Positions 6,301 to 63,300 of a DNA stretch of 64,000 bases are shown in pieces. The position numbers were made by a program, and so were the translations under genes. The first letter of the stretch is position 1; every line of letters starts with the position of its first letter. Source of the stretch: Welwitschia mirabilis (lineage: Eukaryota); contig JBOZIK010000001.1 of NCBI GenBank assembly GCA_051453625.1, positions 17,378,760 through 17,442,759 of the forward strand, in the 5' to 3' direction. The notes below the pieces were generated by a model that was given only the letters and a program-made list of their open reading frames with translations, was not told the DNA's origin and made no database searches.

Positions 6301-6670
6301 TGCCATAAGAAATATAGGATTTTAAGATGTTTCTAAAATGCCATAAAAGGTCTTTAAAAATGTCTTAAATGCTTTTAAGATGTTTCTTTACAGAACACTT
6401 TGAAAAACTTTACCTAAAAAGCCAATAAGCTTTTAAGATGTTTCTAAGGTGTTTTAATAAAAACACTTCAAAAAGGCCTTTTAAGGCATTTCTTTTGTAA
6501 AACACCTTGAAAGGTCTTTTTAAGAGGCATTTTATGTAAGACATGCCGTAAAGGCCCTTCCAAGGCATTTTAGAAAGCAAACACATCTAAATCCTTTTGA
6601 GGCATTTCTCCCTTAAAAGACCTTTTGAGGCATTTCATCAGATAAATGCCTTAAAAGGCGTCACCCTAAA
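6301..6670. mobile_element. Degenerate CACTA terminus with subterminal AAGGCATTT/AAATGCCTT repeats
   Basis: tgccataagaaatataggattttaagatgtttctaaaatgcc resembles the reverse complement of the terminus ending at 50209 for about 100 bp. It is followed by dense direct and inverted copies of the subterminal motif. Confidence 0.75.
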
Positions 6671-8779: not shown

Positions 8780-9815
8780 TGACTACCATATATACATTAC
8801 TTTAGAAGCTTCTGTATTAATTGAGAATGCTGACAATCTATAGGAGTTGAAGGCAAATAAGCTACCATTAGCATTTCAACTATTGCAGAGCACAATAGAA
8901 ATTTATGATGAATAACATACTGAGAAAAAACTAATTTGTTTTAAAATGCTGAAATTCCTATGAAACCTATAAATGGCATGCCATCGAAACTAAAAAATTT
9001 ACAATGATAAGGGTGTGGAAATAGAGGTTAAGACCTGATAATGGTAATGGTTTCATTCCATTCTACAAGTGAGCAGAAGTCTTTTTCATCTTATAAAGGC
9101 ATCCTTAGCAAGGAGGAAAAGGAGTAGATGAATGGAAAAACTACTTTTTCTCCCCTCTCAACTAGTAGTTGATAGAATTTTGTCCTCTATTAATATATTT
9201 TTCCTTTTCCTTTTTTTTTTAATTTTTCCTAGGGAAATAGTTGACTAATAATAAAAGGACCTTTTTGTAGTTTGATTTGTATGAGAGACAAGCAAAGTAA
9301 TGGAATATAATTGAAGAAATTTTTTTCTCCCAACTTTAAAAGGATCACTGAATTTGAAAACTTTCTCTTAAAGGTACCTAATTATGTTTACCTTTTGGTT
9401 TCAAATTGATAGAGTAACCTTCATCATTTCCAAGGTGCCTTAAACAATTAGGACTAATGTTAATATAAGAAAAAAAGGATTTTGAAAGAATATTTCAATT
9501 TTGTTTAGGTTCTTGGCCTTCCTTATTTGGAAATGGTGAATTGTTTGGAAATATCAAAAGGACAAGATTTGGAGAGCTCATTTAGATATAAAAATTACTA
9601 TGAAACTTATACAACTAATTCTAGATAGATTCTATGTGAGGAAGGAACATCAAAAATGATTTAAATCTAAAGATAACAAGGATGGAAATTACTTTTGAAT
9701 ATGGAAATATTCCTTGTCCTAACTATGAGCAAGAAGTATACCTACCAAAATAATACATAAGGAGAACCCAGAGTGCAAGTTCGGAAGGCATGTGTAAAGG
9801 TCACAAAGAGAACTC
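8780..9815 (-). pseudogene. Divergent chromomethylase (CMT)-like DNA methyltransferase remnant (second copy at ~7290-8305)
   Basis: 9814 downward reads SSLCDLYTCLPNLHSGFSLCIILVGILLAHS*...LSLDLNHF, in register with CMT motif I (LLDLYSGCGAMSTGLCLGAxLSGVNLVTRW...SLKLNHP). A weak chromodomain-like stretch follows (GYSINLKPKGKHN*VPL), then PPC*G near 9100-9116 (motif IV PPCQG) and PL*DEK in another frame. Confidence 0.5.
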
Positions 9816-13800: not shown

Positions 13801-14925
13801 TACTTTTACACTATCAATTGCATTATTAATAGGATGATGAGGCCTAAAGAATTTAATGGAATAAGGATCAAAGTTGCAATATTGGTGGAAGATTTTATTG
13901 TGATGTATGTATTGAGTTAAGAGTATTAAGAAATTACAACTAGTTAGTTGGATATGTATGAAATTCTACTGATAGATAATATGTAGTGTAGTTTTTCAGT
14001 TCTATCCTTTTCCCTTTACCCCAATGAGATCATGGCAATCAACTATATTTGAAATTAATAATCAACTATGTCTGTCCCTATATTTTCTAGTTATGGTTTT
14101 CCCTTCTTTTCTATGCTGACTTATGATGAGAAGAGGAAAAATGATCATATAGTAATGGTTTTTATAACTTGCAATAGAATGGACATATATTCTCTCTCAA
14201 ACTTTACTTTTGTATTCATGTATTAGAAGAGTTAATAACTTTCCATTGTTTTCTTACTTTATTCTTACTTTTTTCTTAAGCACTTTTAATAACATTTGGT
14301 TAGTGTCATTCCTAGCTATTATATAGTATTATCTATTCTTGCAGACAATCCATTTTTTTCATGCAAATGCCTTAGACTAGAACACTGATACTTGTAACTT
14401 AACTCTTGAAGGTTCTTACATTTCCACCCTACTCTCAGTTTTAGATAATCTTCTATAAAGAAATACTTAGAAAACTAAACCATAAGGCATTGGACAAGGC
14501 ATTGTCTTTTTCCTCTACTTTTAACTTATTTGATGATATCATGCATGATTTTTACTTCCATTTACCTTTGTATATTTTAATTATAAGACTATCTTTTTTA
14601 TAAAACATTGCTATTAGATGTTAAGAAATTAGGAAGACAAAGGAATTTGTTGCCCTCTTGTTCAAACTATGACAAGACTTTTCCAATTATACTTTAATAA
14701 CCTAAATATGGGGGTAGAAGCTATTTTAAAAACTTTTGGTTGGTTTGTGGCACCCTTCATGTTATTATGTATGAGGAAAAATATTTTTACTCTAGAAAGG
14801 CCTTAAATAGAATTTTGGATATTCCACTCTAATTTAATTAACATTTAGACTTCAAATAGATAATAATAAGTACTAGGTAAAATAAGTCAAGAATTTTTCT
14901 CCTTTTGGCTCTTCATAAGAGATCT

Positions 14926-15675: not shown

Positions 15676-17012
15676 TTAGTGAATATATATTACCTTGAAG
15701 CTGGATATGTAGGCAGGCCTACTATAAAAGTTATAGTACTAAAATGCCTAGATGTTGAAGTTGCTATGATGAACATCTCAACTGCCTAGATTATTACTTA
15801 AAATAGTGACAAACTACNNNNNNNNNNTATTTTTTAGCTCAGATATGAAGAAACATGTCATGAAAGGAAACATTATCTTTATTTCTATGAATACACCTAT
15901 AAAGACTAGAGGAATTAAAGCTGAAAAGGCTACTGATCTGACTTACTAGAAAAGTTCTGCAAGAATGACAACTAATATTTCAAAGTGTGATAAAATTATT
16001 GTTGAAAAATTGACTATTCTAGTGAAAATTACTAAGGCTACAGAAAAGATTTTAACTCACAACAGNNNNNNNNNNNGCTTTTAGATTTGTCAAATCCTAA
16101 ATTTCTTACCAAAGAAACTATGATCCAAGATCTTGTTAAGCCTAATGGGATTATAATTGGTGGTTGGAAAACTTCCAAATGTCAGAAGGCTACTAAGGCC
16201 TTAAAAGTTGATTATGTAAGGTAGGTTCCTAAGGATAGAATACTTGCTACAAATATGTGGTCTACTAAACTATTAAAACTTGTAGCAAATGCGTTCTTGT
16301 CCTAGAGAATTTCATTAGTGAATGTTATTTTAGCTCTTTACAAAGAAACTAAAGTAGATATTATGGAGGTTACTTATTCTATTGGTATGAACTCCAGAAT
16401 TAGCCCAAAGTTCTTAAATGCTAGCATTGGGTTTGGTGGATATTACTTCAAAAAGGATATACTAAACATTTTCTACCTCTATAAGTGCAATGATCTCATG
16501 GAAGTGGCAAACTATTGGAAATGGGTCATTAATATGAATGATTAGAAATAGACATGAATCATGTGGTTTCTTCAATGTTTAATATCATTTCTGGAAAGAA
16601 TATTATTGTTCTTATATTTGCATTCAAGAAGAACATTAGTGATACTAAAGAAGCTCCTACCATTGATGTTTGCAAGAGGATCCTTGGGGACAAGGCAAAC
16701 ATTAGTATTTATGATCCTTGATTAGGATCATCCGATACAACTACAGCCAGTGAGCCCATCATCTATCAAGTAAGTTAGTGTTGTATGGGATTCTTATAAA
16801 GAAACTAAAGATGCACATGATTTATGAATTTTAATAAAGTGGAATGAGTTTAAGAACTTATATTACTGGAAAGTATTTGATAACATGCAAAACACTGTAT
16901 TCATTTTTTATGGTCAGAACATTGTTAATGTGGAAAAGCTTAGGAACATTGGCTTTATTTCATTGGTAAGTCACTAAATCCATGGGTAAAATATCTTCCT
17001 ACAGTGGCATAT
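15676..17012 (+). pseudogene. UGD: UDP-glucose 6-dehydrogenase pseudogene, near full length
   Basis: Colinear with plant UGD from AGYVGRPT through NTPIKTRG, DKIIVEK, KLVANAFLS*RIS, SPKFLNASIGFGG..FKKDILN, FAFKKNISDTKEAPTIDVC to NIVNVEKLRNIGF..PWVKYLPTVA. It has no ATG, multiple stops and a deletion near 16718, and the catalytic GGSC is changed to GGYY. Confidence 0.95.
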
Positions 17013-18329: not shown

Positions 18330-20580
18330 ATCAAGGGAATCTTCCAAAATAAGTGCTTCTACCATGTTCATGGTTGCATCAAAAGATCCTTTGTATAGTT
18401 TTAACCATTATCTATTAACTTCCTAAATATCCTTAGTCTCTAAGTTTAAGGTTTTATATAAGATAAGGATCTAACCATTTAGAGGTCAACTTGTTATTCA
18501 AAAGATGTACTCTAGTGTTATATAAAAGGATGAGTTAACCAGGTTTAAAATTTTGTATGAAGTAATTTTTTATTATGTTTGAACTTAGCTTAGACTTTAT
18601 GGATTAATTGATGATGTATAGAAAGAGTGCTTTTTTTATCAAGGTGGTTTAATTAGGCTTATCTATGTTTAAGGTTTTTATAAAGGTCCACAAAATTAAG
18701 TTGATGAAAAGTACAAAAAGAGCTATAAAACACATCAATAGGTAAAACACAAACTTTTTCATACATAAATTGTTAAGGTCAAAAACTAAGAGAATCATAC
18801 CAAGGAGTATGGTAAGCCTAAAGAACATTGTTATGCTTATAAACCCAAGGTTTTTTATTAACATAAACAAGTTTTTACAACATTTTTTAATTTCTCTATT
18901 TGCATTTTTAGCCTATTCATTAGTCTAAGGATGATAAGGATAAGATACTCTATGTTATATTTCAATGGGAATAAGAAGTTTCCTAAAATGCTGATTAATA
19001 AAATGCATTTCTTAATTAATAAGGATAATCCTAGAAAAATCAAATCTCTAAAAAAATATGAGTTTTAAGAAAATGACAAATAGTTTAGACATCATTCAAA
19101 GAAGTCGAAATAATTTTAACCCATTTAGTCACATAATCTAAAACCATTAAAATGTAGTGTTTATCATGAAAAGGTGGGTGAAGAGGGCCTATAAAATTAA
19201 TACTTAAATAGTAAAAATAGTTACATTTAAGAATAGATCTAAGGATCATCTCCTGAGAATGAATATGGCTATTATAATTCTATCAAGAGTTATACCTTCT
19301 AGCAAAATCAAAAGAATCCTAAAAAAGAGTAAACCAATAAAAACTAGAATGAAGAATTTTCATAGTAATTTTCTATCCACTCAGTATTTTAAAATAAATC
19401 ATACTTATTAGCTACATTAATTAAAACTTATGCTATAAATTTCATCCTTTCATGCTAATCATGCCTCATTCTTCACTTAAATCTTAGAGTTTCTCCACTC
19501 ACTTGTATTCAATCTTTACAATGTCTTGTTACTTAATGCTTATAGAATATACTCCCACTCATTCTCCCATTATCGCTTTTAATGTTAAAAAGGTGAAACA
19601 TTACCTTTTTAACTTACATTATATGTAGATCTATATGTGCATTAGAAGTGTAGAACTCTAATTGCCATGTTTGAAAATGAGGTATGATACTCATTATATT
19701 ATCATTATAAATCAAATGTTGAGGTCTTAGATACTTTGAATACTTCATCACTGAAGCTAGCAGAGAAAACTTTGAAAATAGAATTATTCCTTCAATTTTT
19801 AATTCAATGATCCATCATTTAATAGCTAAGTATCTAAGGATTAGAATAGAAGAACTACATTGATAACTTAATGAAGGAAACTCAGCATACAATGTTTCCT
19901 TACACTACTAGAAATGTAGGCTTTTAAGGTATCNNNNNNNNNNNNNNNNNNNNNNNNNNNNNNNNNNNNNNNNNNNNNNNNNNNNNNNNNNNNNNNNNNN
20001 NNNNNNNNNNNNNNNNNNNNNNNNNNNNNNNNNAAGTTTTTACAACATGTTCTTAATTTCTCTCTTTGCATTTTTAGCCTATTTATTAGTCTAAGGATGA
20101 TAAAGATAAGATACTCTATGTTCTATTTCAATGAAAAAAAGAAGTTTCCTAAAATGCTGATTAATAAAGTGCATTTTTTAATTAATAAGGATAATCCTAG
20201 AAAAATCAAATCTCTAAAAAAATATGAGTTTAAGAAAATGACAAATAGTTTGAACATAATTCAAAGAAGTAGAAATAACTTTAACCCACCTAGTTACATG
20301 TTCTAAAATCATTAAAATGTAGTGTTTATCATGAAAATGTGGATGAAGAGCTTCTATATAATTAATACTCCAATAGTCAAAATGATTACATTTAAGAATA
20401 GATCTAAGGAGCATCTCCTAAGCATGAATATGGCTATCATAATGCTGTCAAGAATTATACCTTTTAGAAAAATCAAAAGAATCCTAAAAAAGAGTAGGCT
20501 AATAAAAACTAGAATGAAGAATTTTCATAGTAATTTTCTATCCACTCAATATCTTAAGACAAATCATACTTATTAGCTAC
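18330..20580 (-). mobile_element. Degenerate Athila-type integrase (part duplicated across the gap)
   Basis: KILHSSFY*PTLF*D (zinc-binding region), FDYWSINYIEALHPHFHDKHYILMILEHVTRWVKVI (rve core, cf. FDVWGIDFMGPFP..KYILVAVDYVSKWVEAI) and FKPG*LILLYNTRVHLLNNKLTSKWLDPY (C-terminal region). Confidence 0.9.
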
Positions 20581-21399
20581 ATTAAGTAAAACTTATGCTA
20601 TAAATTTCATCCTTTCATACAATCATGCATCATTCTTCACTTAAATATTAGAGTTCTCCACTCATTTGTATTCAATTCTTACTACGTCTTCTTATTTAAT
20701 GCTTATAGAATATACTCCCATTCATTCTCCCATTATCGCTTTTAATGTTAAGAAGGTGAAACATTACCTTTTTAACTTACATTCTATGTATATTGATATG
20801 TGCATTAGAAGCATAGAACTCTAATTTCTAGGATTGAAAATGAGGTATAATACTCATTATATTATCATTATAAATCAAATTTTGAGGTCTTAAATACTTT
20901 GAATACCTTCATCACTGAAGCTAGTAGATAATAATTTAAGAATAGGATCATTCCTTCAAGTTTTAATTCAATGATCCATCATTTAGTATCCAAGTATCTA
21001 AGGATTAGGATAGAAGAACTACATTGACAACTTAATTAAGGAAACTTAGCATACAATGTTTTCTTACACTACTAGAAATGTAGGATTTTAAGGTGTTTAT
21101 TTTAATAAATGCCTTATAACACATTTATTAAAATAAATTTATTTAAAAAAAGCTTATAAAAATCCTTAATTTTTTTTTAAATAAACACCTTGAAAAGCCA
21201 TTTTAAATTTATTCCCTGGCATTTATAAAAGAATGTCCTAATAATAAGATGTGTATTATATATTAAAGGGCTTAAAACTATGAGTATTTAAAGCATTTAT
21301 TCAAATTAATGTCTTAAATAATCAAAAAAATTTCTACATTTAAAAAAAAAGGCCTTAATCTTTCTAAGAGAACATCCACTTAATAAGATATTGTTAGCA

Positions 21400-40619: not shown

Positions 40620-43400
40620 ACCTGTGTTCAAAGGTATTGTGTTTTTTATTAGTACACAATCCCTCTTACTTCAATTACATCAATGAGTTTTGACACTGTT
40701 GTACTATCACCTCCCTCAATACCTATAATTTCAGCATGCTTCTAGTTTTTAAAATAATCTTTTGGGATTTTACTCTATCAACATTTATTTATCATCTAAA
40801 GTTGATTATCCATGTAGATGCCTTCAATTAATAGTACTAAAAAACCAAAATGAAAAAAGTAATTCTCTCATAACAAGGATTTGTATGTGTGAAGGTCTAG
40901 CTTCACTCAGATATAAAGAAGAAAGCAATGTCCTNNNGCAAATGTAGACCTTTAGTCTTCCATCTTTAGAGACTTTAGTGATTACTATCATATGGATAGA
41001 AATACACCATTTGTAATCAAACCTCATAAATAAAACTATCAAAATAGTTATATAACTTTTGCTTTCAATCTTTAAGTATAAATGCTTCATAAGCCAAAAG
41101 TCACTAATCTAAAAGTGTAAAAATTTTACAAACTTTTTAATTTATTCTAGGTGGTTTACTTTGATATGGTAGATGATTANNNNNNNNNNNNNNNNNNNNN
41201 NNNNNNNNNNNNNNNNNNNNNNNNNNNNNNNNNNNNNNNNNNNNNNNNNNNNNNNNNNNNNNNNNNNNNNNNNNNNNNNNNNNNNNNNNNNNNNNNNNNN
41301 NNNNNNNNNNNNNNNNNNNNNNNNNNNNNNNNNNNNNNNNNNNNNNNNNNNNNNNNNNNNNNNNNNNNNNNNNNNNNNNNNNNNNNNNNNNNNNNNNNNN
41401 NNNNNNNNNNNNNNNNNNNNNNNNNNNNNNNNNNNNNNNNNNNNNNNGGATTTGTATGTGTGAAGGTCTAACTTTACTCAAATATAAAGAAGAAAGCAAT
41501 GTCCTAGAGTGCAAATGTAGATCTTCAGTCTCTTGTTTTTAGAAACTTTAGTGATTACTATCATATGGATAACAATACACCCTTTGTAACCAAACCCTTA
41601 AACGAAACTATCAAAATAGTTATATAACTTGTGCTTTCAATCTTTAAGTATAAACGCTTCATAAGCTAAAAGTCACTAAGTTAAAAGTGTAAAAATTTTA
41701 CAAACTTTTTAATTTATTCTAGTTGGTTTACTTTGATAGGGTAGATGATTAAAGTAAGTCCAAGAGATATCCTACTAAACACATACAACCACTAGCACAA
41801 TGGATAAATGAATTTAATCCTACCTTGCTCTTCAAATTTGTATAAACTAAATAAGGTAATAAAAATTTGATTATAAATACCATTGTTATTTATAATGCTT
41901 AGAGAAAAATAATTTATCTAATTCATTAAGTATTATCTTATGTAGGTTAAACAATCCTAAGAAATGAAAACATTTAAATTTCATCCACATTTTGATGAGG
42001 CGCATACTTGAGATTATTAGTCAAACATCTAGACTTAAATCTTTTTCAAAGTGATGATATTGATCATTTGGAAGTTGCTTATTGTGAAGTATTGCTTACT
42101 ATTAAGTATTGTCTTAGTTTTAGAAACTAATGTTTTTAACATATTCACTAACTATAAGTTTAGGAGACCTCTTTTAGAATTATGAAATTATTTGATAAAA
42201 TGTTATTTTACTTTAGTCTATAGATTTTCATAAATGACATCATTCTAGGTGTTGCTATACTAGCTGAGTATGACCTTGGTATTAATTAAAAGTCTTAGCT
42301 TTGGTGAGGTTTTCAATCCTCCTCAATGTTATTTTTACCTTATCTTTTACTTATCTTGGTCATGACTCATATGTGCTTCAGCTAAGCATGACTAAAGCTT
42401 TAGAATATTTAATTTATTTTTAGTTCATTTCCCCCTTTCTTTTGGAAGAATCATATGATTAAGTTGTCTTTCTATGTAGTTCTTAAGAAGTTCCAACCTC
42501 TAACTTCTAAAGAAGTTATTAAAGAACAATAGCAATAAGCAAAACTAAGCTAGATCATAATGGATTTACACAATTCTAAAAATATATACTCTATAAGACA
42601 ATAGATTTATAGTTTGTAAAATATTTAGAATATTTGATTAAGGATATAAAGTAAAAATAAATATTAGATATCATTTAGTTTCTAAATGTTTATTTTTAGA
42701 TAATTGCATAAATAATAGTGTTTCTTCTTGATTATAAAATTATTGTTAGTAATGTGATGTCCAATGTCCCTGCCCTTGGCTAAATAATACTCTTGTATCA
42801 TAGATTCTATGATCTACTAATTACTTGTGTCACTAATTACAAGAATTCATTTCCATCTAGTAAATTATATAATTCAAAGTAATTTCAAAGGAATTTATCT
42901 TATTATCATCCTCTTTGTCATTAAAGGATTTATTAGAGATGTGAAAAGAAAAGAAACACTAGCATTTTTTATAGCTTATTAGACATTTCATCCTTTATAA
43001 GAGGTCCTTGCATATCGTCACCAATTCCTACAAATATGGCCACTAGATTATTACTTTGTAGTAACCTTGGGATTCATCGTAGTACCTCTATAGAAATTAC
43101 TGATATTGAAGGTGTGTTAAACTCTACTAGTTTAGATATGGGTGTTTATTCATGTAAGAGTACTAGATCAGTGTTTAACAGAAAATCTTTCTATGGTCTT
43201 TCTTGCATCTCTTAGCTTGGGCAACTAGTTTCCTATTCTGATGTTTATAAAGACATATCATTCCTAAGATGTTTATGCCATATATCCATTGTTGATTCTC
43301 CTTTAAAATGTAAATTCCACAGCCTAGTGTGCATTCATTATGTTTGTAAAACTTAATACCAAACTATCCATGTTGGGATGGAGCTTTATATCAGTAGATC
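40620..43400 (-). pseudogene. Highly divergent Argonaute-like remnant (PAZ-MID-PIWI order)
   Basis: Ordered weak matches: PYL*ELVTICKD (~43003-43040, cf. YLPMELCMICEG), QGQGHW (~42761, cf. QVGQWN), QLNHMILPKERG (~42431-42467, cf. QLLIVILPDNNG), LLINTKV (42272-42292, cf. LKINVKV), DISWTYFNHL (~41745-41772, cf. GVSESQFNQV), KSYITIL..KGCIVIHMIVITKV..YIC (cf. KRHHTRL..SGNILPGTVVDTKI..YLC), ARPSHIQIL (40872-40901, cf. SRPTHYHVL) and IPKDYF (cf. VPPAYY). Confidence 0.55.
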
Positions 43401-43689
43401 AAAAAGCATAAATAAAAGTCGTATTGATAGTGGATCTGCTAGTTAGAACACTAGTTAATATATTAACCTACATTTCTAGCCAACACAATGAGCTTGTAAT
43501 TGAAAAAATAAGATACATTAGCTTGACCAACAAAATAAATTGCATGTTATAACAAAAAAACTCTATAGATAATGTACTTTAAAATGAATTTAGGAATTGC
43601 TCATGATGCATTGATGTAAAATGGTTTTTGATAAAAATAGATACCTAAATGATACATTTGATAAACAATGAAATATTAGGGAAGAGGAA

Positions 43690-46600
43690 TTCTCCTTTAC
43701 TACTATCAGCACGTAGAGCAATGTGTCCACTAGAAGGGTAAGCAAAAGGCCTCATTTCAAGGTAATGTAGACAACCATTATTAGCAAAGNNNNNNNNNNN
43801 NNNNNNNNNNNNNNNNNNNNNNNNNNNNNNNNNNNNNNNNNNNNNNNNNNNNNNNNNNNNNNNNNNNNNNNNNNNNNNNNNNNNNNNNNGGAATTATCCT
43901 TTACTACTATTATCATGTAGAGCACTGTATCCACTAGAAGGGCAATTGAAAGGCCTCATTCCAAGGTAATGTAGACAATCATTGTTAGCAAAGAGACATC
44001 TACATCCACTCTTGCACTATTAGTAAGGAAGAGCTAATGCTATGAAAATCTCTAGTTTACATTGTAATTTGTAGAAATTAAAGTGTTGAATAAAACAGAT
44101 GTGAGGAAATTGGATTTGTATCATGATAACAATGAGTTGTATAGACTCATAAGACTAGTATATCTATAGTTATTTAATGTCATAGTTCTTAAATTTTATG
44201 GCATCTTAGATAGCATGTAATTAAGCCTTAAGCAAATAGACTGCCCCACTAAGTAGCCTCTAGTAAATTCCCTCAACATATACAGGTAGGGGCAAACATA
44301 CTAGAATGGAACTTTTACTTCAGATGGTATCTTTTAATACATTTCATGCTTTCGTAAGTTAGTCTTTTCTTTGATTCTTAAATTACATTTGACTATTTTG
44401 ATTGGCTTTTATCTCAGTTCAAGTACTAAATAAAGTGTAAAGATATCTGCATTTTGAGTATCTCTTAGGTAGTAACCCTTTCTTACCTACTCCTTAAATA
44501 CAAAGTTTGCTTTAGCTTTATCATCACTACTTTGGCGCTATTCTAATTGCATAATTGAACTCATAAACAGATTGTCTGCTTCCTTAGAATGATATGATAA
44601 AAACAAGGAGGAATAATGCAATGTCATAAATTTAGAATAACTACCTTTGTTCTCCAAAAAATGGGACCTTTCAAAAGAGTTTAAATATTAAAATGTCTAA
44701 ACTATAGATGTCAGATGCTGAAGAGCTTTATGTTCCTAGACAAGCTAGTGTTTCATTATGTTCTTTAGGATTGGTATACTAGTTATCCTTAGCCATTAAT
44801 AGATCTTTAATAAGGTTGTAAACATTATCATTCAAAGTAGCTATGTAATTTTTCTCATTTTCTTCATTCAAAGTAGCACTTTGTAAGTTTGAATTTATAA
44901 ATTGATATTTTTTAGTGCTCTAAACTCAATTCCAAATTGAATGCAAATTAAACATTTTATTATTAGTTTAAGATTACATATATATTATAAATGATGATGT
45001 GGGTCATCAAATGAATTTTTTTGTAGAAGAGATTTTATTTAAAATATAGAGAAAATTGATACTCCTATTTTTGAAACTTATTTTCCTCTCTATAGAGGAC
45101 ATACAAAGTTTTGACTAGATCAAGCTAAACAATTTATTTATGTTGAGTTCCTTATCTGGAGGAAATTTTATGAATGCATACTTTATTTCTAATTATTTAA
45201 ATGCATGAAGGAAAAGGTCTTTTACCAAAACCAACAAGGCTCTCTGATATTAATAGTTGAATGTAAATGGACATATCAAATACCATTAAATAGAAACTAA
45301 ATTGCATAGCATAGAACTATCACAACTAAATGGTAGAAATAGAAGTTAATAAAACTTTAGCTAAATAAAGTATGTTCTTTACAATTTATAGGAGGAATGA
45401 TAAAAAAGAGTATGTGTTTTTTAGTTGTTTTACCTTAATCCAGATAAGTGTTGCACATTTTAGATATTAAGCATCTATTATTATTGTATGCTTTTCTNNN
45501 NNNNNNNNNNNNNNNNNNNNNNNNNNNNNNNNNNNNNNNNNNNNNNNNNNNNNNNNNNNNNNNNNNNNNNNNNNNNNNNNNNNNNNNNNNNNNNNNNATG
45601 TGTTTTTTAGTTTTTTTACCTTAATCTAGACAAGTGTTGCACATTTTATATATTAATCATCTATTATTATTATATGCTTTTCTGAATGTTAACTTCTATT
45701 TCGAAAATTGACTTTTCTTTTGGTATAACTAAAATGAATAGCTACAATAATATGTGTATCTATGCTTCCATTTGCTTTCTTTTTCTTTTATTTTCTTCCT
45801 TTTTTTTTTTTTGTTTTTTTTTCATTGTCATAGATTGCTTCTATAGGTATAATGTGATTTCTTAGTTTCTCACATACTAATGTTTCAAACCTATAGGCCA
45901 CNNNNNNNNNNNNNNNNNNNNNNNNNNNNNNNNNNNNNNNNNNNNNNNNNNNNNNNNNNNNNNNNNNNNNNNNNNNNNNNNNNNNNNNNNNNNNNNNNNN
46001 NNNNNNNNNNNNNNNNNNNNNNNNNNNNNNNNNNNNNNNNNNNNNNNNNNNNNNNNNNNNNNNNNNNNNNNNNNNNNNNNNNNNNNNNNNNNNNNNNNNN
46101 NNNNNNNNNNNNNNNNNNNNNNNNNNNNNNNNNNNNNNNNNNNNNNNNNNNNNNNNNNNNNNNNNNNNNNNNNNNNNNNNNNNNNNNNNNNNNNNNNNNN
46201 NNNNNNNNNNNNNNNNNNNNNNNNNNNNNNNNNNNNNNNNNNNNNNNNNNNNNNNNNNNNNNNNNNNNNNNNNNNNNNNNNNNNNNNNNNNNNNNNNNNA
46301 GTGTTCTAGAAGTAATTTGAGTGGTGAACTTTAATTTATAAGTTGGGAATAATTTCTTATTCCTCCTTAACAGGATAGACTAATGGATTATTCTACCTCA
46401 TAGATGGCTTTGTTAGACCATGATGTAACAATTAAGGTAAGGTTGTGCTTTATTTTAATTCATTTATTAAATGTGTTACTTATACCAATAAGACAAAAAA
46501 ACATTAAGCCATACTGACAATGTAGTTAGGCAATTTTATCAATTACCATTTACTATGTAGGCATGTAATTATCTTTATGTCCATTCTTGAATCCACAATA

Positions 46601-47640
46601 CTTTATTTTTTATCAACAACACCAATTTTCTTTGGAATCTTTCATTTGTTTTCTTTGGAGATGGTAATTTAATTCACATATTTAGTTTTGTTTTGATTTA
46701 TGATGTAAAATGGCTTAAAGGCTTTTAATTATGATTAGTTAATTTAACTATTTAAACATGAATTTAGTATGGGGACCTTGCATTTTTCTGTTGTCCCTTA
46801 AACACATCTCCCAAAAGGGATTAGATACCTATGTAAGATAACTAGCTTCCTAGATCTAATAAAAAAAAACAGATGCTTCGTAGACATGACATGTCTAAGT
46901 TTAGAATCTATGGTATCTATTCATAAAAGTAACCACATCTAATCTTCTATGCTTGGTAGAATGATATAAGGCACATAATTAATATAGAATTAGTATCTTG
47001 TCTTTGTACATGCACAGTCAAGGATGTCAATCTAGGGAGTTGAGAAATGAAAGTGAGATATGTAATGGAAAAAATTGTTAATGTAAATAAAAGCAAACAC
47101 AACAATGTATCAGGTATGAAAGTGGGAAATGAGTGAAGGAGATAAATAATTATGATTCAACCATAGCCATAATTACACATAATGCTTGTCGATGCTTCTA
47201 CTTTACACATATAATAACCTATAACCCATTTATTACCAGCATATCCTTATAGTTTTTGATGCCTTACTTTTCCTTGTCAACATTAAATAATTCTTATTCA
47301 TTTAAAATTATTACAACTAATATCAGCTTATCATGTTTTATGAAGATCATCCTTTGATTAGCATGTACATTCATTATTTTATCTTATATATCAATTATGA
47401 CATGATCTATAAGGGATTCCAAAGTAATATTTACTTGAACTATGACATAAGTAATCTTGAGGGGGTATATAATAAAATTTGAAAATTCTGGCTTTGTGGA
47501 GTCTAGTATCTACTTCACTTTTGCACTGGGTATCATGTGGTATTTATAGGCTGGTTACCATTATTACAGCAACAGTAGCATCTCTTTTTTATCATTCCTC
47601 CTATAAGTGTGTTAAAGCTCTTGATGCCAAAGAAAAATGA
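43690..47640 (+). pseudogene. RNA-dependent RNA polymerase (RDR1-like) pseudogene with retained introns; 3' part duplicated at 47762-48490
   Basis: Acceptor tatag|GCCAC at 45896/45897 (R-P-H). From 46302 it reads CSRSNLSGEL*FISWE*FLIPP*QDRLMDYSTS*MALLDHDVTIK|gtaagg (cf. CSGSDLDGDIYFVCWDxELIPPRQxxPMDY..LDHDVTIE|). NGTFTSDGI lies upstream (~44265-44291). Downstream are YDMIYKGF, TWYHV (48376-48390) and FLSFPYKCVKALDAKEK* (cf. AWYHV..FISFPWCVYDxL). The 5' boundary is uncertain. Confidence 0.85.
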
Positions 47641-49919
47641 ATTTTTGTATGTTATCTATTTNNNNNNNNNNNNNNNNNNNNNNNNNNNNNNNNNNNNNNN
47701 NNNNNNNNNNNNNNNNNNNNNNNNNNNNNNNNNNNNNNNNNNNNNNNNNNNNNNNNNNNNNGGTATCTATTCATAAAAGGAATCACATATAATCGTCTAT
47801 GCTTGGTAGAATTATATAAAGTACACAATCAATATAGAATTAGTATATTGTCTTTGTACATGCATAGTCAAGGATGTCAATCTAAGGAGTTGAGAAATGG
47901 AAGTGAGACATGTAATGGAAAAAATTGCTAATTTAAATTAAAGCAAACACATCAAAATATTAGGTATGAATGTGGGAAATGAGTGAATGAGACAAATAAT
48001 TATGATTCAAACATAGCCATAATTACACATAATGCTTGCCAATGCTTTTGCTTTACACATATAGTAACCTATAACCCATTTATTACCAGCATATCCTTAT
48101 AGTTTTTGATGTCTTGCTTTTTCTTATCAATATTAAATGAATTCTTATTCATTTGAAATTATTACAACTAATATTAGCTTATTATGTTTTATGAAGATCA
48201 TCCTTTGATTAGCATGTACATTCATTATTGTATCTTATATATCAATTATGACATGATCTATAAGGGATTCCAAATTGATCTTTACTTGAACTATGACATA
48301 AGTAATCTTGAGGGGGTATCTAACAAAATTTGAAAATTATGGCTTTATGGAGTCTAGTATCTACTTTATTCTTGCACTTGGTATCATGTGTTATTTATAG
48401 GCTGGTTACCATTGTTACAGTAATAATAGCATCTCTTTTTTATCATTCCCCTATAAGTGTGTTAAAGCTCTTGATGCCAAAGAAAAATGAATTTTTGTAT
48501 GTTATCTATTTTTTAATTCTTTTTTGTATAACATCTATAAATAGTATGAGNNNNNNNNNNNNNNNNNNNNNNNNNNNNNNNNNNNNNNNNNNNNNNNNNN
48601 NNNNNNNNNNNNNNNNNNNNNNNNNNNNNNNNNNNNNNNNNNNNNNNNNNNNNNNNNNNNNNNNNNNNNNNNNNNNNNNNNNNNNNNNNNNNNNNNNNNN
48701 NNNNNNNNNNNNNNNNNNNNNNNNNNNNNNNNNNNNNNNNNNNNNNNNNNNNNNNNNNNNNNNNAGATTGGCTAACCCATGTCAAAATATTCATCACTTA
48801 GGAAAAACATCTATAACTGATCATGTGATAAGGACATGCCAGACTTTCTTAGAATTACAATAAATAGATTGATTATAAATCTTCATTAGGGATGTGATAA
48901 CTATACCTTAGGGGCATTTACTCTATTAACTTTTTTTTCCTATGGTGATGCCTTTTGAGACATTTATTTGGTAAAATACCTTAAAATGGCTTTTTAGGTG
49001 TTTATTGAAATAAATGCCTCAAAAGGTCTTTTAAGATGTTCCTTAAGAAAAATGCCTTAAAATCCTTTTAAGGCATTTCTTTGAAAAATGCCTCGAAAGG
49101 CCTTTCAGTGAATCTTCATTAAAATACTAAAGTTTTTTATAAAGAAATGCCTTAAAAGCATTTAAGACGTTATTTTAAGACCTTTTAAGGCATTTCTTTG
49201 AAAAATGCCTCAAAAGGCCTTTCAGTGAATCTTTATTAAAATACTAAAGTTTTTTATAAAGANNNNNNNNNNNNNNNNNNNNNNNNNNNNNNNNNNNNNN
49301 NNNNNNNNNNNNNNNNNNNNNNNNNNNNNNNNNNNNNNNNNNNNNNNNNNNNNNNNNNNNNNNNNNNNNNNNNNNNNNNNNNNNNNNNNNNNNNNNNNNN
49401 NNNNNNNNNNNNNNNNNNNNNNNNNNNNNNNNNNNNNNNNNNNNNNNNNNNNNNNNNNNNNNNNNNNNNNNNNNNNNNNNNNNNNNNNNNNNNNNNNNNN
49501 TTTTGTATAACATCTCTAAATAGTATGAGATATTGAGAAGGGAATTCCATAATCTATGAGAAGACTCTCAGAGATTAAGAGTTAAATATGAATGGATGTC
49601 ACATGCTCTATATTATTCTTTCCTCTTCTCTTAATGTCATAAAGGTTTGTAACTACTAATTTGTTTAATGCATAAAATGCCTAACCCTTTATATAAATCA
49701 AAATTTGGTCCTAGGTTTATCCTTTAATTATAATGTAACATTAGAGATTGGCTAACCCATGTCAAAATATTCATCACTTAGGAAAAACATCTATAACTAA
49801 TCATTTAATAAGGACATGCTAAACATTCTTATAATTACAATAACTAGATTGATTATAAATCTTCATTAGGGATGCGATAACTATACCTTAGGTGCATTTA
49901 TTCTATTAATTGTTTTTAC

Positions 49920-50209
49920 TAAGGTGATGTCTTTTGAGACATTTATTTGGTAAAATACCTTAAAATGGCTTTTTAGGTGTTTATTAAAATACATTCGTTA
50001 AAAGGTATTTTAAGATGTTCCTTAAAAAAATGCCTTAAAAGCTGTTTAAGGCATTTCTTTGAAAAATGTCTCAAAAGGCCTTTTAGTGAATTTTTATTAA
50101 AATAGTAAAGTGTTTTATAAAGAAATGACTTAAAATCATTTAAGACGTTTTTTTTGAAACCTTTTAAGGCATTTTACAAACACCTTAAAAGCCTATATTT
50201 CTTGTAGTA
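49920..50209. repeat. CACTA right subterminal repeats and TIR (partial alternative copy at 48945-49262)
   Basis: Multiple AAATGCCTT/AAGGCATTT motifs ending in ATTTCTTGTAGTA. Confidence 0.85.
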
Positions 50210-50799
50210 CTAGGTAAACTAGCTAGATAGATCTAAGTGTTAGATAAGATTGTTGGTTAGCACTTAGTCTAGCTACACTAAGTTTTTATAAGGGAAACAT
50301 AGAGAAAATGATTTGTAATGCAAAGCCTTACAAGAATTTTTGATGAGATCTCCCTAAGAAAATAAGCATGCTATTAGAATCCTTGAGTGAGATGCACCTC
50401 CTACCCCTAGGTGAAAGTTTTGTAGGATCATCATCCAAGATTAAGTATTCTAATGGAAATAATAAGATATTTGGCCCCTTTAAGAATTGATTTGATTTAT
50501 TAGAGTAATTTGTTTCTTATTTTTTAATAGTTTGAATGAGGCTTTATTATGTTCTTAGAAATGATGTAATAGATTTCTTTATCTAATAAAGTTTTTATTT
50601 GTTATTTTATTTTAAAAAATTTATCTTATGATTATTTTTTTATTTTCTCATAGACATTATCAATTTCATTAAACGGAATTCATACTAAGTAACTTAACAA
50701 ATTGTAAGATAACATGAAATGATTTTAAAACTATGAAGCTTTATTCTTTGCTAAAATAGAATTTAATGATTATCCATGACATTGAATAAGATCTTTGAA

Positions 50800-52350
50800 T
50801 TCACATTCCATCATACACCAGAATAAAATTCTTATTTTTTACCTCTTTTTCTTTTTATAAGTTGTGAAATATAGTTATAGCCTTGGTAACTAGTTATGTC
50901 TCAGATGACTCCTTGGGCATAGCTATTCATCAAATTTTATTTCTCACAACTTACTTTTCTAACCACAATGATAAGAGTGCAACCACTATTAGAAGAATAA
51001 AGACTTATAATCTTTTCATAATTTATATCATGGACAATTAAGCCCTCAGTGGAGTTCTTATAGCTATCATATTACACTACTAAAGGCCCCTCTCAAGAAT
51101 GTTTGACCTAGTGCACTTATAGTAGAACATTGTGTTTTTTTCCTTTTTTGTGGTACATACACATTTACTAAAAGATATTCTATCATGTGATGGAATGTGT
51201 CTCCTTAATCTTCCTAATAAGGATAATGCATCATCTCTTGTTGAATACTTACCAAGTTAGCGTCTCATTTCAAAATCACTAAATTTACCTTAAACAACTT
51301 AGTAAATCAATAGTTTGAATAATCTTCAAAGAAATAACATATCCTTTATTATCTAGTTTAAGACTTTTTATTTATAAGTAAAGTAGAAGTATTACTTCCA
51401 TTCTATAAGGGTTTCCTAAATTATGTAGCAAAGATTTATGTTCATAATACATTTTTATGCTCTATTCATTAACTTGGCAAGTTAATTTTTCATTAGGATC
51501 ATATACATTGATGGACCCATTTCCAAAAATTTTTGTTATGCTATAAGATCCTAGTTAATTTTGTTTTTATATTTCTATTTGAAATGCATCTTTTTAGGAT
51601 TAGATTAATACATGATCTCCTATATTAAATTTGGTTTTTTAAATTTTATTATCTTTATGTATTTTAGTTGTTTATTATCTAAGTTCTTTATGCAAAAGAA
51701 CCTTCTTTTTAATTTTCATCCAAAATCTTCATGTTTTCTATCCATCATTCTTAAGTTGTATTCAATGGTTCTTTAGCCAATTTATAGGTCTTTATTTTAC
51801 ATTCAGTTATGAAGAAATGGTGTAAACTCTATGCTATGTTTTCAAGTTATTCTACAAGCCTATAAAGCTTTATTTAATTTTTTAGCCTAATCTATTTTCT
51901 TAATATTTATGACTTTTGTTAATATTCTATTAATTTTTCTATTAGTAACTTCATCTTGATCATCAAATTAAATATGATAGATAATAGAGAGTTTGTTATG
52001 GATTTCATGTTTAGTTAAGAGTTTCTTTTATGTTTTACTAGTATAATAAGTTCCTCTATCAAATATAATACTTTAAGGAACTTCAAAATAATGGATGATA
52101 TTTCTAAGAAAAATTATTAATTATAGTTTAGAAAGAATAGTGGAATTGTTGCAATGCCAATTTATAGAAATTTTATGGTGTATTTAGAGTACTTTTATAG
52201 GACATTTATATAAGTTTTAATGTAATTCTATTAATTATGAAGAGACGATACAATGATCATGGAAACATGTAATTCTTGACATAATTAGAGGCATTTTGGG
52301 CATATTCTGATACTTAGCATATGAAAGGAGAACTAAGTATGAAGAAGGCT
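50800..52350 (-). mobile_element. Degenerate Ty3/gypsy integrase followed by a second, more decayed RNase H/integrase-like segment
   Basis: NIIHYFEVP*SIIFDRGTYY..KKLLTKHEI..QDEVTNRKINRILTKVI..D*AKKLNKAL*ACR at ~51850-52110. Further downstream are VPQKRKKHNVL and ILERGL*-like pieces at ~51070-51170. Confidence 0.75.
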
Positions 52351-57369: not shown

Positions 57370-60300
57370 TAAGTGAGGCAAGTCCTTTTTGGACTTAATA
57401 CCTAGAAAATAGTGCAGGGTTAAAAATCGATCTAAATGATTTTATAAAAATATTTGCCAATTGATCTTCTATGCAAACATATTCTAAAGATATTATTTTT
57501 TTCTACTAATTCACGAATAAAGTGGTATCTTATATCAATGTATTTGATGTGAGTGTGTTAAATTGGGTTGTAAGCTATTTGAATGACACTTGAGTTGTCA
57601 CAAAGGATTGGCACTTCTATGATATTTATCCCATAGTTCTTCAAGGTCTATTTCATTCACAAGGTCTAAGTGCAACAATCTCTAGCTGCTATGTACTCAG
57701 ATTTGATGGTATAAAGAGATATAGAGCATTATTTCTTACTATATAAGGCTGTGAGACAATTTTTAAAGAAAACGTATCTACCACTTGTGCTTTTCTGATC
57801 ATCTTTACATCCATCCCAATCTGCATCACTATATCCTATTACGATTAAAGTAGTATTATTTAAAAACCATAAACCAAAATCTAGAGTATGTTTCACATAG
57901 CGAAGCATTCTCTTTGTAGCTGTAAGATGTGATTCTTTAAGTTTACTTTAATACCTGGCATACAAACCAACACTAAAGTCTATATCTTGGTAATTAGCCA
58001 TTAAATATAATAGACTTCCAATAGTACTACGATATACTTTTTGATCCATATCCTTGCTATGTTCATCTAAAGAAAGTTTAACATTTGTAGCCATTAGAGA
58101 GTCCATGCACTTTGCATTTTCCAGTTTGAACTTTTTAATCAAATCTAAGAAGTATTTCTTTTGATTGNNNNNNNNNNNNNNNNNNNNNNNNNNNNNNNNN
58201 NNNNNNNNNNNNNNNNNNNNNNNNNNNNNNNNNNNNNNNNNNNNNNNNNNNNNNNNNNNNNNNNNNNNNNNNNNNNNNNNNNNNNNNNNNNNNNNNNNNN
58301 NNNNNNNNNNNNNNNNNNNNNNNNNNNNNNNNNNNNNNNNNNNNNNNNNNNNNNNNNNNNNNNNNNNNNNNNNNNNNNNNNNNNNNNNNNNNNNNNNNNN
58401 NNNNNNNNNNNNNNNNNNNNNNNNNNNNNNNNNNNNNNNNNNNNNNNNNNNNNNNNNNNNNNNNNNNNNNNNNNNNNNNNNNNNNNNNNNNNNNNNNNNN
58501 NNNNNNNNNNNNNNNNNNNNNNNNNNNNNNNNNNNNNNNNNNNNNNNNNNNNNNNNNNNNNNNNNNNNNNNNNNNNNNNNNNNNNNNNNNNNNNNNNNNN
58601 NNNNNNNNTAAAGATTCCCTATTTGTATTACTGAATTTGTGAATCCAAAAACATATTTATAGGTCCAACCAAGTTCATTTCAAATTCAGAACTCATAAAT
58701 TTTACAAAATCATTTGATAAGCTTTCATTTATTGATCCAAAAATAATATCATCAACATAGATTTACACTAGAATTAAGTTATTATTCAAAAACTTTCAAA
58801 ACAACATTTTATTAATGGATCCTCTAGAAAAACCATGTTGAAGTAAGAATGATGAGAGCTTCTCATACTAAGCTCTAGGAGCTTATTTTAACTGATACAA
58901 GGCTTTGTTAAGTTTATAAACATATTCAGAATTGTGAGGATCAGAAAAATCTTAAGGTTCCTTAACATAAACTTCTTCTTCAATATTTCCATTAAGAAAA
59001 GCATTNNNNNNNNNNNNNNNNNNNNNNNNNNNNNNNNNNNNNNNNNNNNNNNNNNNNNNNNNNNNNNNNNNNNNNNNNNNNNNNNNNNNNNNNNNNNNNN
59101 NNNNNNNNNNNNNNNNNNNNNNNNNNNNNNNNNNNNNNNNNNNNNNNNNNNNNNNNNNNNNNNNNNNNNNNNNNNNNNNNNNNNNNNNNNNNNNNNNNNN
59201 NNNNNNNNNNNNNNNNNNNNNNNNNNNNNNNNNNNNNNNNNNNNNNNNNNNNNNNNNNNNNNNNNNNNNNNNNNNNNNNNNNNNNNNNNNNNNNNNNNNN
59301 NNNNNNNNNNNNNNNNNNNNNNNNNNNNNNNNNNNNNNNNNNNNNNNNNNNNNNAAGAAAGACATGAGCAGTAAATTTCTTAAGAGAATTTATGGTAATG
59401 ATACCTTACTAATCATTTTAAATAATAGAATCCAAAGGATTATCCTTGAGTTCCTTAATTTCTAGAGTCGCTATATCTTTTGAGTTTTCATTTATTTGAT
59501 CACTAGAGCACAAGCGAAAAGGATCATTGTTATGGTTAATGAATTTTAAAGAATCTGAGATATCATGTATTTTTAAATTAATTAATTCTTCCATATGAAT
59601 AGTTCTTTTGTTAAAAACTCTATAGGCTCTACTAGATTAAGAGTATCCTAAAAATATTTCTTCATCTAATTTAGAATTAAATTTAGCTAATTCTTCTCTA
59701 TCTCTTAGAATGGATCATTTACTTTCAAAAGTTTTAAAATATGATATATTTAGTTTCTTACCTTTTCATAGTTATTAGGAGTTTTAGATATTTTCGGTCT
59801 TAAATAAACTCTCTTAGATACATGAGATGCCATGTTCACAGCTTCAGCTCAAATCTGTTTTTGGATGTTTTTGTCATTTAGCATTACTCTAGCCAAATCT
59901 AGTATGGTTCGATCTTTCTTTTTAGCTATTCCATTTTATTGAGGTGTTTTAGGGGCTAAAAATTCATGGCCAATTCCATTTAAGTTGCCATAAATTTTAA
60001 ATCTTTTAGTTTTAAAATCTTTACCATGATCACTTCATATTTTATTTATTACATACCCCTTCTTAGTTTCATAGGCATTAGATTTTACATGAATAAAAGC
60101 TACCAACAAAAACATAAAAAAATTGTTAACCATGACTAGAAAATATCTTTTTCTAGATAGACTCATAGTTTGGATAGGTCCAACTAAATTCATGTAAATT
60201 AAGTCTAAGGATTTACTAGTTGTAATATTGCTAACTCTTTTGTGAGAGGTTTTGGTTTGTTTTCCCTTTTGATAAGCATCACATAGCCCTTTGTGAGAAA

Positions 60301-63300
60301 AAGAGATTTTAGGGAGACCCCTAACTATCATATCATGACATAATTTTTTCAAAGATTTAAAACTCATATGACTTAAACATTAATACCAAATAACGTTATC
60401 TTGAGTATGAGATGATACACATGTAGNNNNNNNNNNNNNNNNNNNNNNNNNNACATTATCATGTCTATTTTCTATAAGTAGAGGTTGATCAATTTTTTCG
60501 TGTTTCATAATATATGTGTTTTCATCAAAAAGGTCTTTATGACCCTTATCATAAATCTGACTAATGCTTAACAAATTATTCTTTAAACCATTAACAAATA
60601 AAACATTATGAATATTTAGTAAATTACCTTTATTAATGCTTCCAATTCCTTTAATTTGAAATCTTTCATTATCTCCGAAAGTGATTTCTTCTCCATTGTA
60701 TTCCTTGAAGCTGATGAAGTTTAATTTATTATGTGTCATATGTCTCAACCAACCACTATCTAGATACTAACACAAATTATTAGTTACTTTTAAAGCCATT
60801 TGGATCAATAATTTATTAAGCATTAGTCAGATTTATGATAAGGATCATAAAGATGAAGGACTTCATGAGATTCAATGCTATTCCTACAAAGATTTTGGTC
60901 ATACTTCAAATGTCTACCCAAATAACAGAAAGAATGACAAAAGAAAGGAAAAGAAAGTCCTATCTGCAACATGGGATAATGATGAAAGTAAAAGTGAACA
61001 AAACTCAGATTTAGAACATGGTGGTATCTCTCTTATGGCTATCATCAATGAAAATGTATGTTCTACTTCTAACATTAACTCAGTTATTAGTGAAGATATG
61101 CTTAATGATATTAAATTGGAATTATATTTGGAATGCCAAAATCTAGCTCACAGATTAAACCAATTAGAAAAGAAAATAAGATCCTTCTAGATGAGCTTGA
61201 GATTAGGAAAAAGGAAGTTAATGATCTAAAAAATAGCCTTGCATCAACTTCCTATAGAATAAAGAATCAAACCTCTAAAAAATCATTTCCTAGATATGAC
61301 CCTTATCNNNNNNNNNNAAAACATTATGAATATTCAATAAATTACCTCTACTAATGCTTCCAATTCCTTTAATTTGAGATCTTTCATTATCTCCGAAAGT
61401 GATTTCTTCTTCATTGTATTTCTTGAAGCTGATGAAGTTTGATTTGTTATTTGTCATATGTCTTAACTAACCACTATCTAGATACTAACACAAATTATTA
61501 GTTACTTTTAAAGCCATTTGGATCAATAGGCTCTTAGTTATATACTTAGGAATCCACCTCAGATATTTATTTCTATTTATAACATGATGAGGTTTTTTGG
61601 TAAATGTAAACTTAGATCCTAAAAGGGAGTGCGGAAATTAACTTTTGGTAAAGACACAATCAATCTTAGAGTGATCTTTTTTGTTCTAATAGTAATNNNN
61701 NNNNNNATTAGCTAAAGAATTCTTAGAATCTGCCTTAGACAAGTGTTTAAAATGAGAGGAGTGATAAGAATTTAGAGATCTAGGGAATGATTTTTTAGAG
61801 GCTTAATTCTTTATTCTATTTTTTAGAGGCTTGATTCTTTATTCTATAGGAAGTTGATGCAAGGCTATTTTTAGGTCATTAACTTTCTTTTTCCTAATCT
61901 CAAGCTTATCTAAAAGGATTTTATTTTCTTTTCTAAGTTGNNNNNNNNNNNNNNNNNNNNNNNNNNNNNNNNNNNNNNNNNNNNNNNNNNNNNNNNNNNN
62001 NNNNNNNNNNNNNNNNNNNNNNNNNNNNNNNNNNNNNNNNNNNNNNNNNNNNNNNNNNNNNNNNNNNNNNNNNNNNNNNNNNNNNNNNNNNNNNNNNNNN
62101 NNNNNNNNNNNNNNNNNNNNNNNNNNNNNNNNNNNNNNNNNNNNNNNNNNNNNNNNNNNNNNNNNNNNNNNNNNNNNNNNNNNNNNNNNNNNNNNNNNNN
62201 NNNNNNNNNNNNNNNNNNNNNNNNNNNNNNNNNNNNNNNNNNNNNNNNNNNNNNNNNNNNNNNNNNNNNNNNNNNNNNNNNNNNNNNNNNNNNNNNNNNN
62301 NNNNNNNNNNNNNNNNNNNNNNNNNNNNNNNNNNNNNNNNNNNNNNNNNNNNNNNNNNNNNNNNNNNNNNNNNNNNNNNNNNNNNNNNNNNNNNNNNNNN
62401 NNNNNNNNNNNNNNNNNNNNNNNNNNNNNNNNNNNNNNNNNNNNNNNNNNNNNNNNNNNNNNNNNNNNNNNNNNNNNNNNNNNNNNNNNNNNNNNNNNNN
62501 NNNNNNNNNNNNNNNNNNNNNNNNNNNNNNNNNNNNNNNNNNNNNNNNNNNNNNNNNNNNNNNNNNNNNNNNNNNNNNNNNNNNNNNNNNNNNNNNNNNN
62601 NNNNNNNNNNNNNNNNNNNNNNNNNNNNNNNNNNNNNNNNNNNNNNNNNNNNNNNNNNNNNNNNNNNNNNNNNNNNNNNNNNNNNNNNNNNNNNNNNNNN
62701 NNNNNNNNNNNNNNNNNNNNNNNNNNNNNNNNNNNNNNNNNNNNNNNNNNNNNNNNNNNNNNNNNNNNNNNNNNNNNNNNNNNNNNNNCACACTCTTCTT
62801 CTTTTGCTTTTCAAATTTCAACTCAAAAATGTGATGGTTCCCTTCGAGTTTATCTAGTTTCATGATGTCTAGGTCCTTGCTTTCTTCTATAGCAATCACT
62901 TTTGATTCGAATGTTTTTGGTAGAGATCTCAAGGCTTTGTGAAGCACTCTTGATTATTTAATTGATTCACCTAATTCACGCATAGAATTTACAATATCTG
63001 TTAGTTTTGTAAAGAAATTATTTATACCTTTATCATCTTCCATCTTTAGGTTCTCAAACTGGGTGATCAGCAATTAAAGCTTAGCCTACTTTATTAGATT
63101 TATTCCTTCATGAGAAGTCTCAAATATATCCCATGATTCTTTAGTAGTGGTATAGTTCACCACTCTTTTAAAATCTTTTAGACCTATGACACAGAAGATA
63201 GCATTTAGGCCTTTGAAGTTATAGGTTGTAGATTGTTTCTTATCTAGTGTTCATTTGTCCCTACTTTTTGGAATTGCTAACTTGCTAATCAAATCCTACA

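Follow-up and report, generated by a model that had tools for sequence, protein, structure and literature searches.

Pack-CACTA transposons were described in Arabidopsis as non-autonomous elements that carry the termini and duplications of their family together with pieces of host exon-intron DNA (Catoni et al. 2019, PMC6379663), and the same paper states that Pack elements can arise from neighbouring terminal remnants, with flanks that do not match. Related accounts are the Pack-TYPE survey made with packFinder (PMC8903248) and that of Tgm-Express in soybean (PMC1947982). For gymnosperms, a comparison from 2026 (PMC13477047) gives an average of ~400,000 transposon-captured coding fragments per genome, alongside many pseudogenic fragments. 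Here we analysed a stretch of 64,000 nucleotides from Welwitschia mirabilis (assembly GCA_051453625.1, contig JBOZIK010000001.1, positions 17,378,760 to 17,442,759; hereafter the window), in which an initial annotation had placed an RDR1-like gene, with its introns kept and its catalytic motif destroyed, inside a CACTA element at 43690-48490. We found a single decayed exon of the RDR1/RDR2 kind at 46302-46436 (+), lying on the inner side of a genuine CACTA terminus at 50208/50209. The best single reading, unproven and in our judgement about evenly balanced between right and wrong, is that this exon was captured by a non-autonomous Pack-type CACTA element.

The locus resembles the Arabidopsis Pack-CACTA elements in its terminus, (C/T)ACTACAA, its subterminal repeats, the lack of a transposase and the host exon-intron DNA on the inner side, and it resembles the new Pack-CACTA hybrids (PMC6379663) in the non-matching flanks at its ends. 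It differs in size, as with the candidate partner end at 21067 or at 6301 the element would span 29-44 kb in the assembly, far more than its Arabidopsis counterparts, and in its cargo, a lone and heavily decayed exon; unlike in Pack-CACTA, paired ends, a 3-bp duplication, mobility and further copies with the same cargo are undemonstrated here. With the captured and pseudogenic fragments of seed plants (PMC13477047) it shares the general picture of a short, decayed host coding piece within repeat DNA, the donor from a silencing pathway being the sole distinctive trait. Whether captured or stand-alone, the fragment belongs to a common and well-described class. Among the papers listed in a literature search, no title or beginning of an abstract reports an RDR1 fragment as transposon cargo, which is weak evidence of absence.

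Read in a single frame, the 45 codons of 46302-46436 (+), delimited by RDR alignments and profiles, give CSRSNLSGEL, FISWE, FLIPP, QDRLMDYSTS and MALLDHDVTIK, separated by four in-frame stops (TAA at 46332-46334, 46350-46352 and 46368-46370, TAG at 46401-46403). A phmmer search against all solved structures aligned this pseudo-exon over all of its 44-45 residues with residues 826-869 of Arabidopsis RDR2 (7eu0_M, E 3.7e-7), and a protein scan of 1.84 billion representatives gave 40 matches at E<=1e-3, the best of them at 1.6e-6 with 56% identity. A profile built from 75 RDR proteins reported the pseudo-exon with an independent E-value (i-E) of 2e-11, its positions 809-854 of 1132 alone being matched across the whole window, and a profile of this exon only, made from 141 distinct exon sequences, scored it at 40.2 bits (i-E 9.3e-14). 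By contrast with these profiles, hmmscan against Pfam returned no PF05183 match for the decayed fragment alone and no RdRP match for the long frames of 41448-50212. The same exon in its intact form, in the best-matching protein (P0002), is reported at PF05183 positions 425-479 (E 1.5e-13), and in the RDR1 protein P0032 the PF05183 domain covers residues 373-947, the catalytic exon included. The pseudo-exon thus appears homologous to eukaryotic RdRP (PF05183), yet lies beneath Pfam's own reporting; the alignment to that family on which the initial annotation had staked its proposal is obtained with RDR2 by phmmer and with our own profiles, and not with hmmscan. A word-index homologue search with the 45-residue fragment yielded no candidates, and metagenome contigs contained no relatives of P0002.

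Where RDR proteins have the catalytic DLDGD motif (DxDGD), the pseudo-exon has NLSGE (46314-46328, +), column for column in the alignments to RDR2, to RDR exons and to the exon profile, as had been read before. This loss is ordinary general decay, with no specific lesion. Contigs from other runs repeat 46301-46458 with 3 differences (3/158) and 46301-46493 with 9 (9/193), so the stops do not come from misassembly. While RDR2 826-869 aligns throughout and the borders lie at conserved introns, as in plant RDR1/RDR2 (PF05183; RDR2 structures 7eu0/7roz), only ~45-51 of 582 profile positions are present here, with DLDGD lost, four stops and no further exons, which makes this a fragment and no functional member of the family. 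Only the homology speaks for an RDR-like gene that works or acts as a dominant negative, and the sequence for practical purposes refutes it: in place of an open frame with a full RdRP domain there is one exon, its four stops in 45 codons are reproduced in other runs, no further RDR exon was found, and the longest stop-free open reading frame (ORF) nearby stays below 100 residues. With NLSGE in place of its motif and no neighbouring RDR exons, the fragment now encodes nothing.

The borders of the exon tell how it was copied. Directly after its last codon (...DHDVTIK) stands GTAAGG (46437-46442, +), a 5' splice-site-like sequence that is present just where the initial annotation had seen a donor. 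At the opposite side, a putative 3' splice site, AG at 45895-45896, is followed by GCCAC (45897-45901), read as the start of RPH; the position of this acceptor, which had also been claimed, agrees with the intron immediately before RPH in relatives, although the claim rests on 7 bases (45895-45901, +) ahead of a gap of 398 N (45902-46299). This gap interrupts the exon, and its flanks do not overlap across it. The bases that follow, AG TGT TCT, fit ...(G)AG TGT TCT (E C S), and as a continuous exon would need only 9 bases here, either the size of the gap is wrong or an insertion is present. Among the 37 protein matches with a locatable motif, 27 hold the block RPH...DHDVTxE/Q/K edged on both sides by sequence unrelated to RDR, most of them with V after the block, as expected on reading into a GT intron, and 6 run on canonically at both edges. 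The Ginkgo model P0025 has a break in its Pfam match at profile position 423, just upstream of the catalytic exon. These patterns indicate a catalytic exon of ~51 codons bounded by conserved introns on both sides. Since the copy ends at these conserved intron positions, it was taken from DNA and not from mRNA, so that the earlier proposal of borders at plant RDR intron positions and of copying at the DNA level is upheld by the 27/37 identically bounded relatives. The proposal of a gene with its introns kept is not, as a single exon is detectable, with four stops among its 45 codons, and nothing above chance level answers to flanking exons. The fragment is thus a genuine but dead piece of an RDR gene that was copied from DNA.

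The fragment is of the RDR1/RDR2 kind. Named relatives comprise an RDR2 (P0030, Cucurbita) and members of the RDR1 clade (P0032, together with the named entries in a list of 120 of its relatives); exon types were labelled by CSGS/CSGG and two named proteins. The comparison covered RDR1- and RDR2-type exons, and no RDR6 was among the 40 protein matches. The seven closest exons are RDR1-type, including the Ginkgo model and a Welwitschia transcript, with the RDR2-type P0024 tying with the last two of them (22/41). The mean identity of the pseudo-exon is 0.528 to 28 RDR1-type exons versus 0.504 to 9 RDR2-type exons, and it has CSxS and LDHDVTI in common with RDR1-type exons. This weakly favours an RDR1-type over an RDR2-type origin, by a small margin. 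Of the name given initially, "RDR1-like" is therefore reasonable albeit unproven, with a supported RDR1/RDR2 origin and a weak preference for RDR1, while "gene" does not apply to one dead exon.

The second component of the locus, a CACTA right end, is genuine, as the initial annotation had maintained. The En/Spm terminus reads CACTACAAGAAAA. At 50181-50209 (-) lies a terminal inverted repeat (TIR), TACTACAAGAAATATAGGCTTTTAAGGTG when read inward, which places the end of the element at 50208/50209; it differs by 1 mismatch from a 29-nt pattern that occurs 3 times in the window, with 0 expected by chance, and metagenome contigs contained no relatives of this pattern. The repeat starts with TACTACAA, and the right end reads TACTACAAGAAAT..., with 1 change; for Arabidopsis, the CACTA terminus is taken as CACTACAA in PMC8903248. 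The adjoining subterminal region (49938-50180, -) is rich in direct and inverted copies of AAATGCCTTAAAAG-like motifs, as expected of CACTA ends, and a redundant twin at 48934-49262 is likewise dense in them. Copy-number class and loose ends were read from public contigs of four runs (two organisms) placed on the window, with 45765-45901 excluded as a repeat and bins within N runs uncovered. The resulting contig depth, which is not copy number, was 555-1050 in bin 49938-50161 versus 20-75 in the two preceding bins, and 555 to ~10,000 in bins 49938-50385 versus 6-120 in bins 46130-48593; no high-depth bin occurred within 43890-48817. Just behind 50208 and 50209, 48-85 contigs per run, in all four runs, continue into mutually unlike sequence, that is, many copies diverge exactly at the terminus. 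Position 50208/50209 is thus the terminus of a multi-copy element with its interior to the left, and therefore the RDR exon lies on the inner side. Just outside this end, at 50386-50600, the summed contig depth is also high (141-877 in the four runs), and the element apparently lies within a further repeat.

Any structural claim at this locus has to reckon with the assembly. The window (28.4% G+C) contains 56 N runs in its 64 kb. Of the 28 gaps of exactly 100 N, 25 have flanks that overlap without having been merged: the last part of the left contig recurs at, or close to, the start of the right one with 87-99% identity. Comparable overlap is present at only 3 of the 28 other gaps; pooled, these 28 overlaps (3 of them at non-100-N gaps) hold 384 transitions versus 225 transversions. 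The scaffold is a chain of diverged copies or haplotypes left unmerged, with inflated lengths and uncertain adjacency, and therefore distances and neighbourhoods in it require independent support. This bears on every structural claim drawn from the scaffold.

For the link between exon and terminus such support is at hand. The exon shares its contig with the low-copy sequence that follows toward the transposon end (46437-47661, +), which may be parent-gene intron or transposon interior. The next stretch, 47662-49500, which includes three N runs, is a redundant piece of assembly, ~90-92% identical to 46912-47661 plus 49745-50191. An 804-nt contig from run X5 lacks it altogether, joining 47321-47661 to 49501-49959 at ~96% identity with ~10 letters between. 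As 47662-49500 is redundant and this contig bypasses it, the true distance from the end of the exon to the terminus is ~1.9 kb, and a real genome holds one or more copies in which the two are linked. Contig depth in the exon bins, 6.5-31.6 versus 3.5-4.3 for single perfect contigs, gives a weak hint of a few copies. An assembly chimera, in which the contig of the exon and that of the transposon end would stem from different loci or repeat copies, could draw on the 56 N runs, on the unmerged overlaps and on the redundancy of 47662-49500; it is unlikely given the independent contig, and given that the ~91% identical second version keeps the same order, its 214-N gap corresponding to 215 nt of the first.

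Less certain is where the element begins. A candidate left TIR, CACTACTAGAAATGTAGGATTTTAAGGTG, lies at 21067-21095 (+) with 0 mismatches to the 29-nt pattern (0 expected by chance), and a second version with 1 mismatch at 19903-19931 (+), within a redundant block before a gap; an alternative left end with the degenerate terminus TGCCATAAGAAATATAGG spans 6301-6680 (+) and has subterminal likeness to the right end. The candidate left ends read CACTACTAGAAAT..., and the regions 6301-6680 and 19903-19931/21067-21095 look like further CACTA-type ends, from this family or a related one, and both face right; 50209 aside, no partner for them was found in the window. A motif cluster at 14365-14496 resembled a further transposon end and is not one. 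None of the 216 stop-free ORFs of at least 45 residues in the window, which were searched for protein families, matched a transposase family of TnpD/TnpA type, with remains shorter than 45 residues or within N runs escaping this search, and because no such ORF matches a DNA-transposase family, the element is presumed non-autonomous or degraded. The earlier placement "inside a CACTA element" is supported at the right, where the exon lies inward of a verified end, and uncertain at the left, where the partner end is ambiguous. Our inference is that a single element enclosed the exon between its two ends and carried it along. In such a course, one RDR1/RDR2-type exon (~51 codons, with the DLDGD loop) and bits of both flanking introns would have been copied as DNA; this host DNA would have come between CACTA termini by Pack-type acquisition and moved along with them, after which it would have been silenced and would have decayed neutrally within a very AT-rich genome.

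Several observations weigh against capture by such an element. The clean TIRs at 21067 and 19903 have little subterminal likeness to the right end, whereas the end at 6301 has that likeness, matching the reverse complement of 49942-50203 at 70% identity over 278 nt, and a degenerate tip. No 3-bp target-site duplication is found, with TTA before 19903 and 21067, TCT before 6301 and CTA after 50209; one transition would reconcile TTA with CTA, and the mismatch is weak evidence either way. The high-copy part at the right terminus measures only ~270 bp, so that this end could be a stump, and a second, independently inserted copy bearing the exon is not demonstrated. To these add the 100-N gaps, 25 of 28 of which have unmerged overlaps, and a stretch outside the element, 50868-51077 (+), that is collinear with the next RDR exon at a chance-level score of 23.5 bits.

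Several of these points also favour a stand-alone RDR pseudogene in transposon-rich DNA, of one exon or of several with very long introns, which would never have been a passenger; the CACTA sequence at 50209 would then be a truncated terminal remnant, or an insertion into the former intron downstream of the catalytic exon. Terminal remnants of about the size seen here (264 bp) are reported as products of aberrant excision in PMC6379663, no fitting target-site duplication and no unambiguous partner end were found, and plain pseudogenes do occur in the window, as shown by a long UDP-glucose dehydrogenase (UGDH) pseudogene at 15821-16736. What may be a vestige of the following exon lies at 50868-51077, in the orientation of the catalytic exon; it reads TSYVSDDSLGI...LF.I...D...GV...H, begins at the first residues of that following exon and is matched by 105 of 109 RDR queries. 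Being outside the transposon end, it would bear on the pseudogene reading if real. It nevertheless ranks third of ~25 loci in the window with at least 21 bits, two being higher and ~20 within 2.5 bits, and was set aside as background; neither RDR profile reports it, and the gymnosperm protein P0006 fits it worse than angiosperm RDR1s do, opposite to the real exon. Moreover, no upstream exon appears across 45 kb, and no left boundary of a stump is seen from exon to terminus, searches with the 29-nt pattern and for repeats having found no opposing terminus of the 50209 family between the two. We regard the stand-alone pseudogene as the leading alternative to capture, possible though less likely.

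The absence of companion exons was probed in several ways. In tblastn over the 64 kb with the matches from the protein scan as queries, the rows of 9 queries, full-length ones included, showed 46302-46436 as the only significant RDR similarity; with filters off, the 75-protein profile run over six frames gave every domain besides the pseudo-exon an i-E of 0.99 or worse, and the exon profile found nothing further better than i-E 3.3 across the window. Targeted searches used the 120 residues upstream and the 120 downstream of the catalytic exon as queries. The flanking exons claimed initially within 43690-48490 are accordingly not borne out, there being no significant RDR similarity besides 46299-46436 anywhere in the window, and motif-like glimpses that the targeted searches turned up, at 43750-43785, 47578-47604 and 50868-51077, probably prompted the claim. 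Among candidates that were rejected, 43750-43785 (-), ANNGCLHYLEMR, gave E 2.6 in a 6-kb target with no profile match and lies on the minus strand, 47768-47932 (+) was non-collinear at i-E 0.99, and 47578-47604 (+), ASLFYHSSY, stayed at background level with E 1.3. As a separate observation, PHPYHCKFFNLDG at 7467-7520 (-), duplicated near 8980-9018, looks non-significantly like the start of the catalytic RDR exon, ~1.2 kb inside the 6301 end and in mirror orientation with respect to the real exon; it is at chance level (tblastn E 0.38-6.8, exon profile -3.5 bits, i-E 4.4), with no DNA-level match to the exon region.

The exon might instead have travelled in a smaller element nested in or beside the CACTA element. 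A perfect 25-nt inverted repeat surrounds it at 45386-45410 (left arm, +) and 47582-47606, ~2.2 kb in the assembly; this sequence occurs exactly 2 times in the window, with 0 expected, and has sharp, TIR-like edges. The pair has no flanking duplication of 2-10 bp and no further copy in the window, encloses the 398-N gap and resembles no TIR type familiar to us, which makes this passenger distinctly unlikely; capture by the Pack-type CACTA element remains our preferred account. The right arm of the repeat is the source of the in-frame ASLFYHSSY.

Elsewhere in the window reading frames are short, the longest stop-free one having 139 residues. The UGDH pseudogene (15821-16736, +) is intron-less and frame-shifted, with stops and two small N runs, its NAD-binding, central (E 6e-19) and UDP-binding Pfam domains being collinear in three different frames. 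Remains of a Copia-type retrotransposon at 60038-62953 (-) are split by N runs and duplicated blocks and retain a Pol beta-barrel (E 8.6e-19 and 1.3e-8), a GAG-pre-integrase (5.6e-6) and a weak gag. The stretch 42286-42420 (+) is possibly another decayed gene fragment, of the PDR ABC-transporter associated domain; its PDR_assoc match of 19.4-19.8 bits lies below the Pfam cut-off of 24.9 and was not accepted.

Taken alone, the pseudo-exon is of little importance, being one more host gene fragment in the repeats of a large AT-rich plant genome. Such relics may nevertheless be mistaken for RDR members by gene finders and by first-pass readers, so that the tally of silencing genes would come out too high. 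In maize, small-RNA cross-talk between captured fragments and their donor genes has been discussed (bioRxiv 10.1101/777037). A CACTA element carrying a host RDR1-type piece could, on being silenced, give rise to exon small RNAs that hit the donor RDR and thereby dampen a component of silencing or antiviral defence, a scenario that we consider very unlikely. If it were true, an epigenetic conflict between the CACTA element and its donor RDR would exist, to the benefit of the transposon. As the donor belongs to a silencing pathway, younger related copies, should they exist, would offer natural test cases for the small-RNA cross-talk between transposons and genes.

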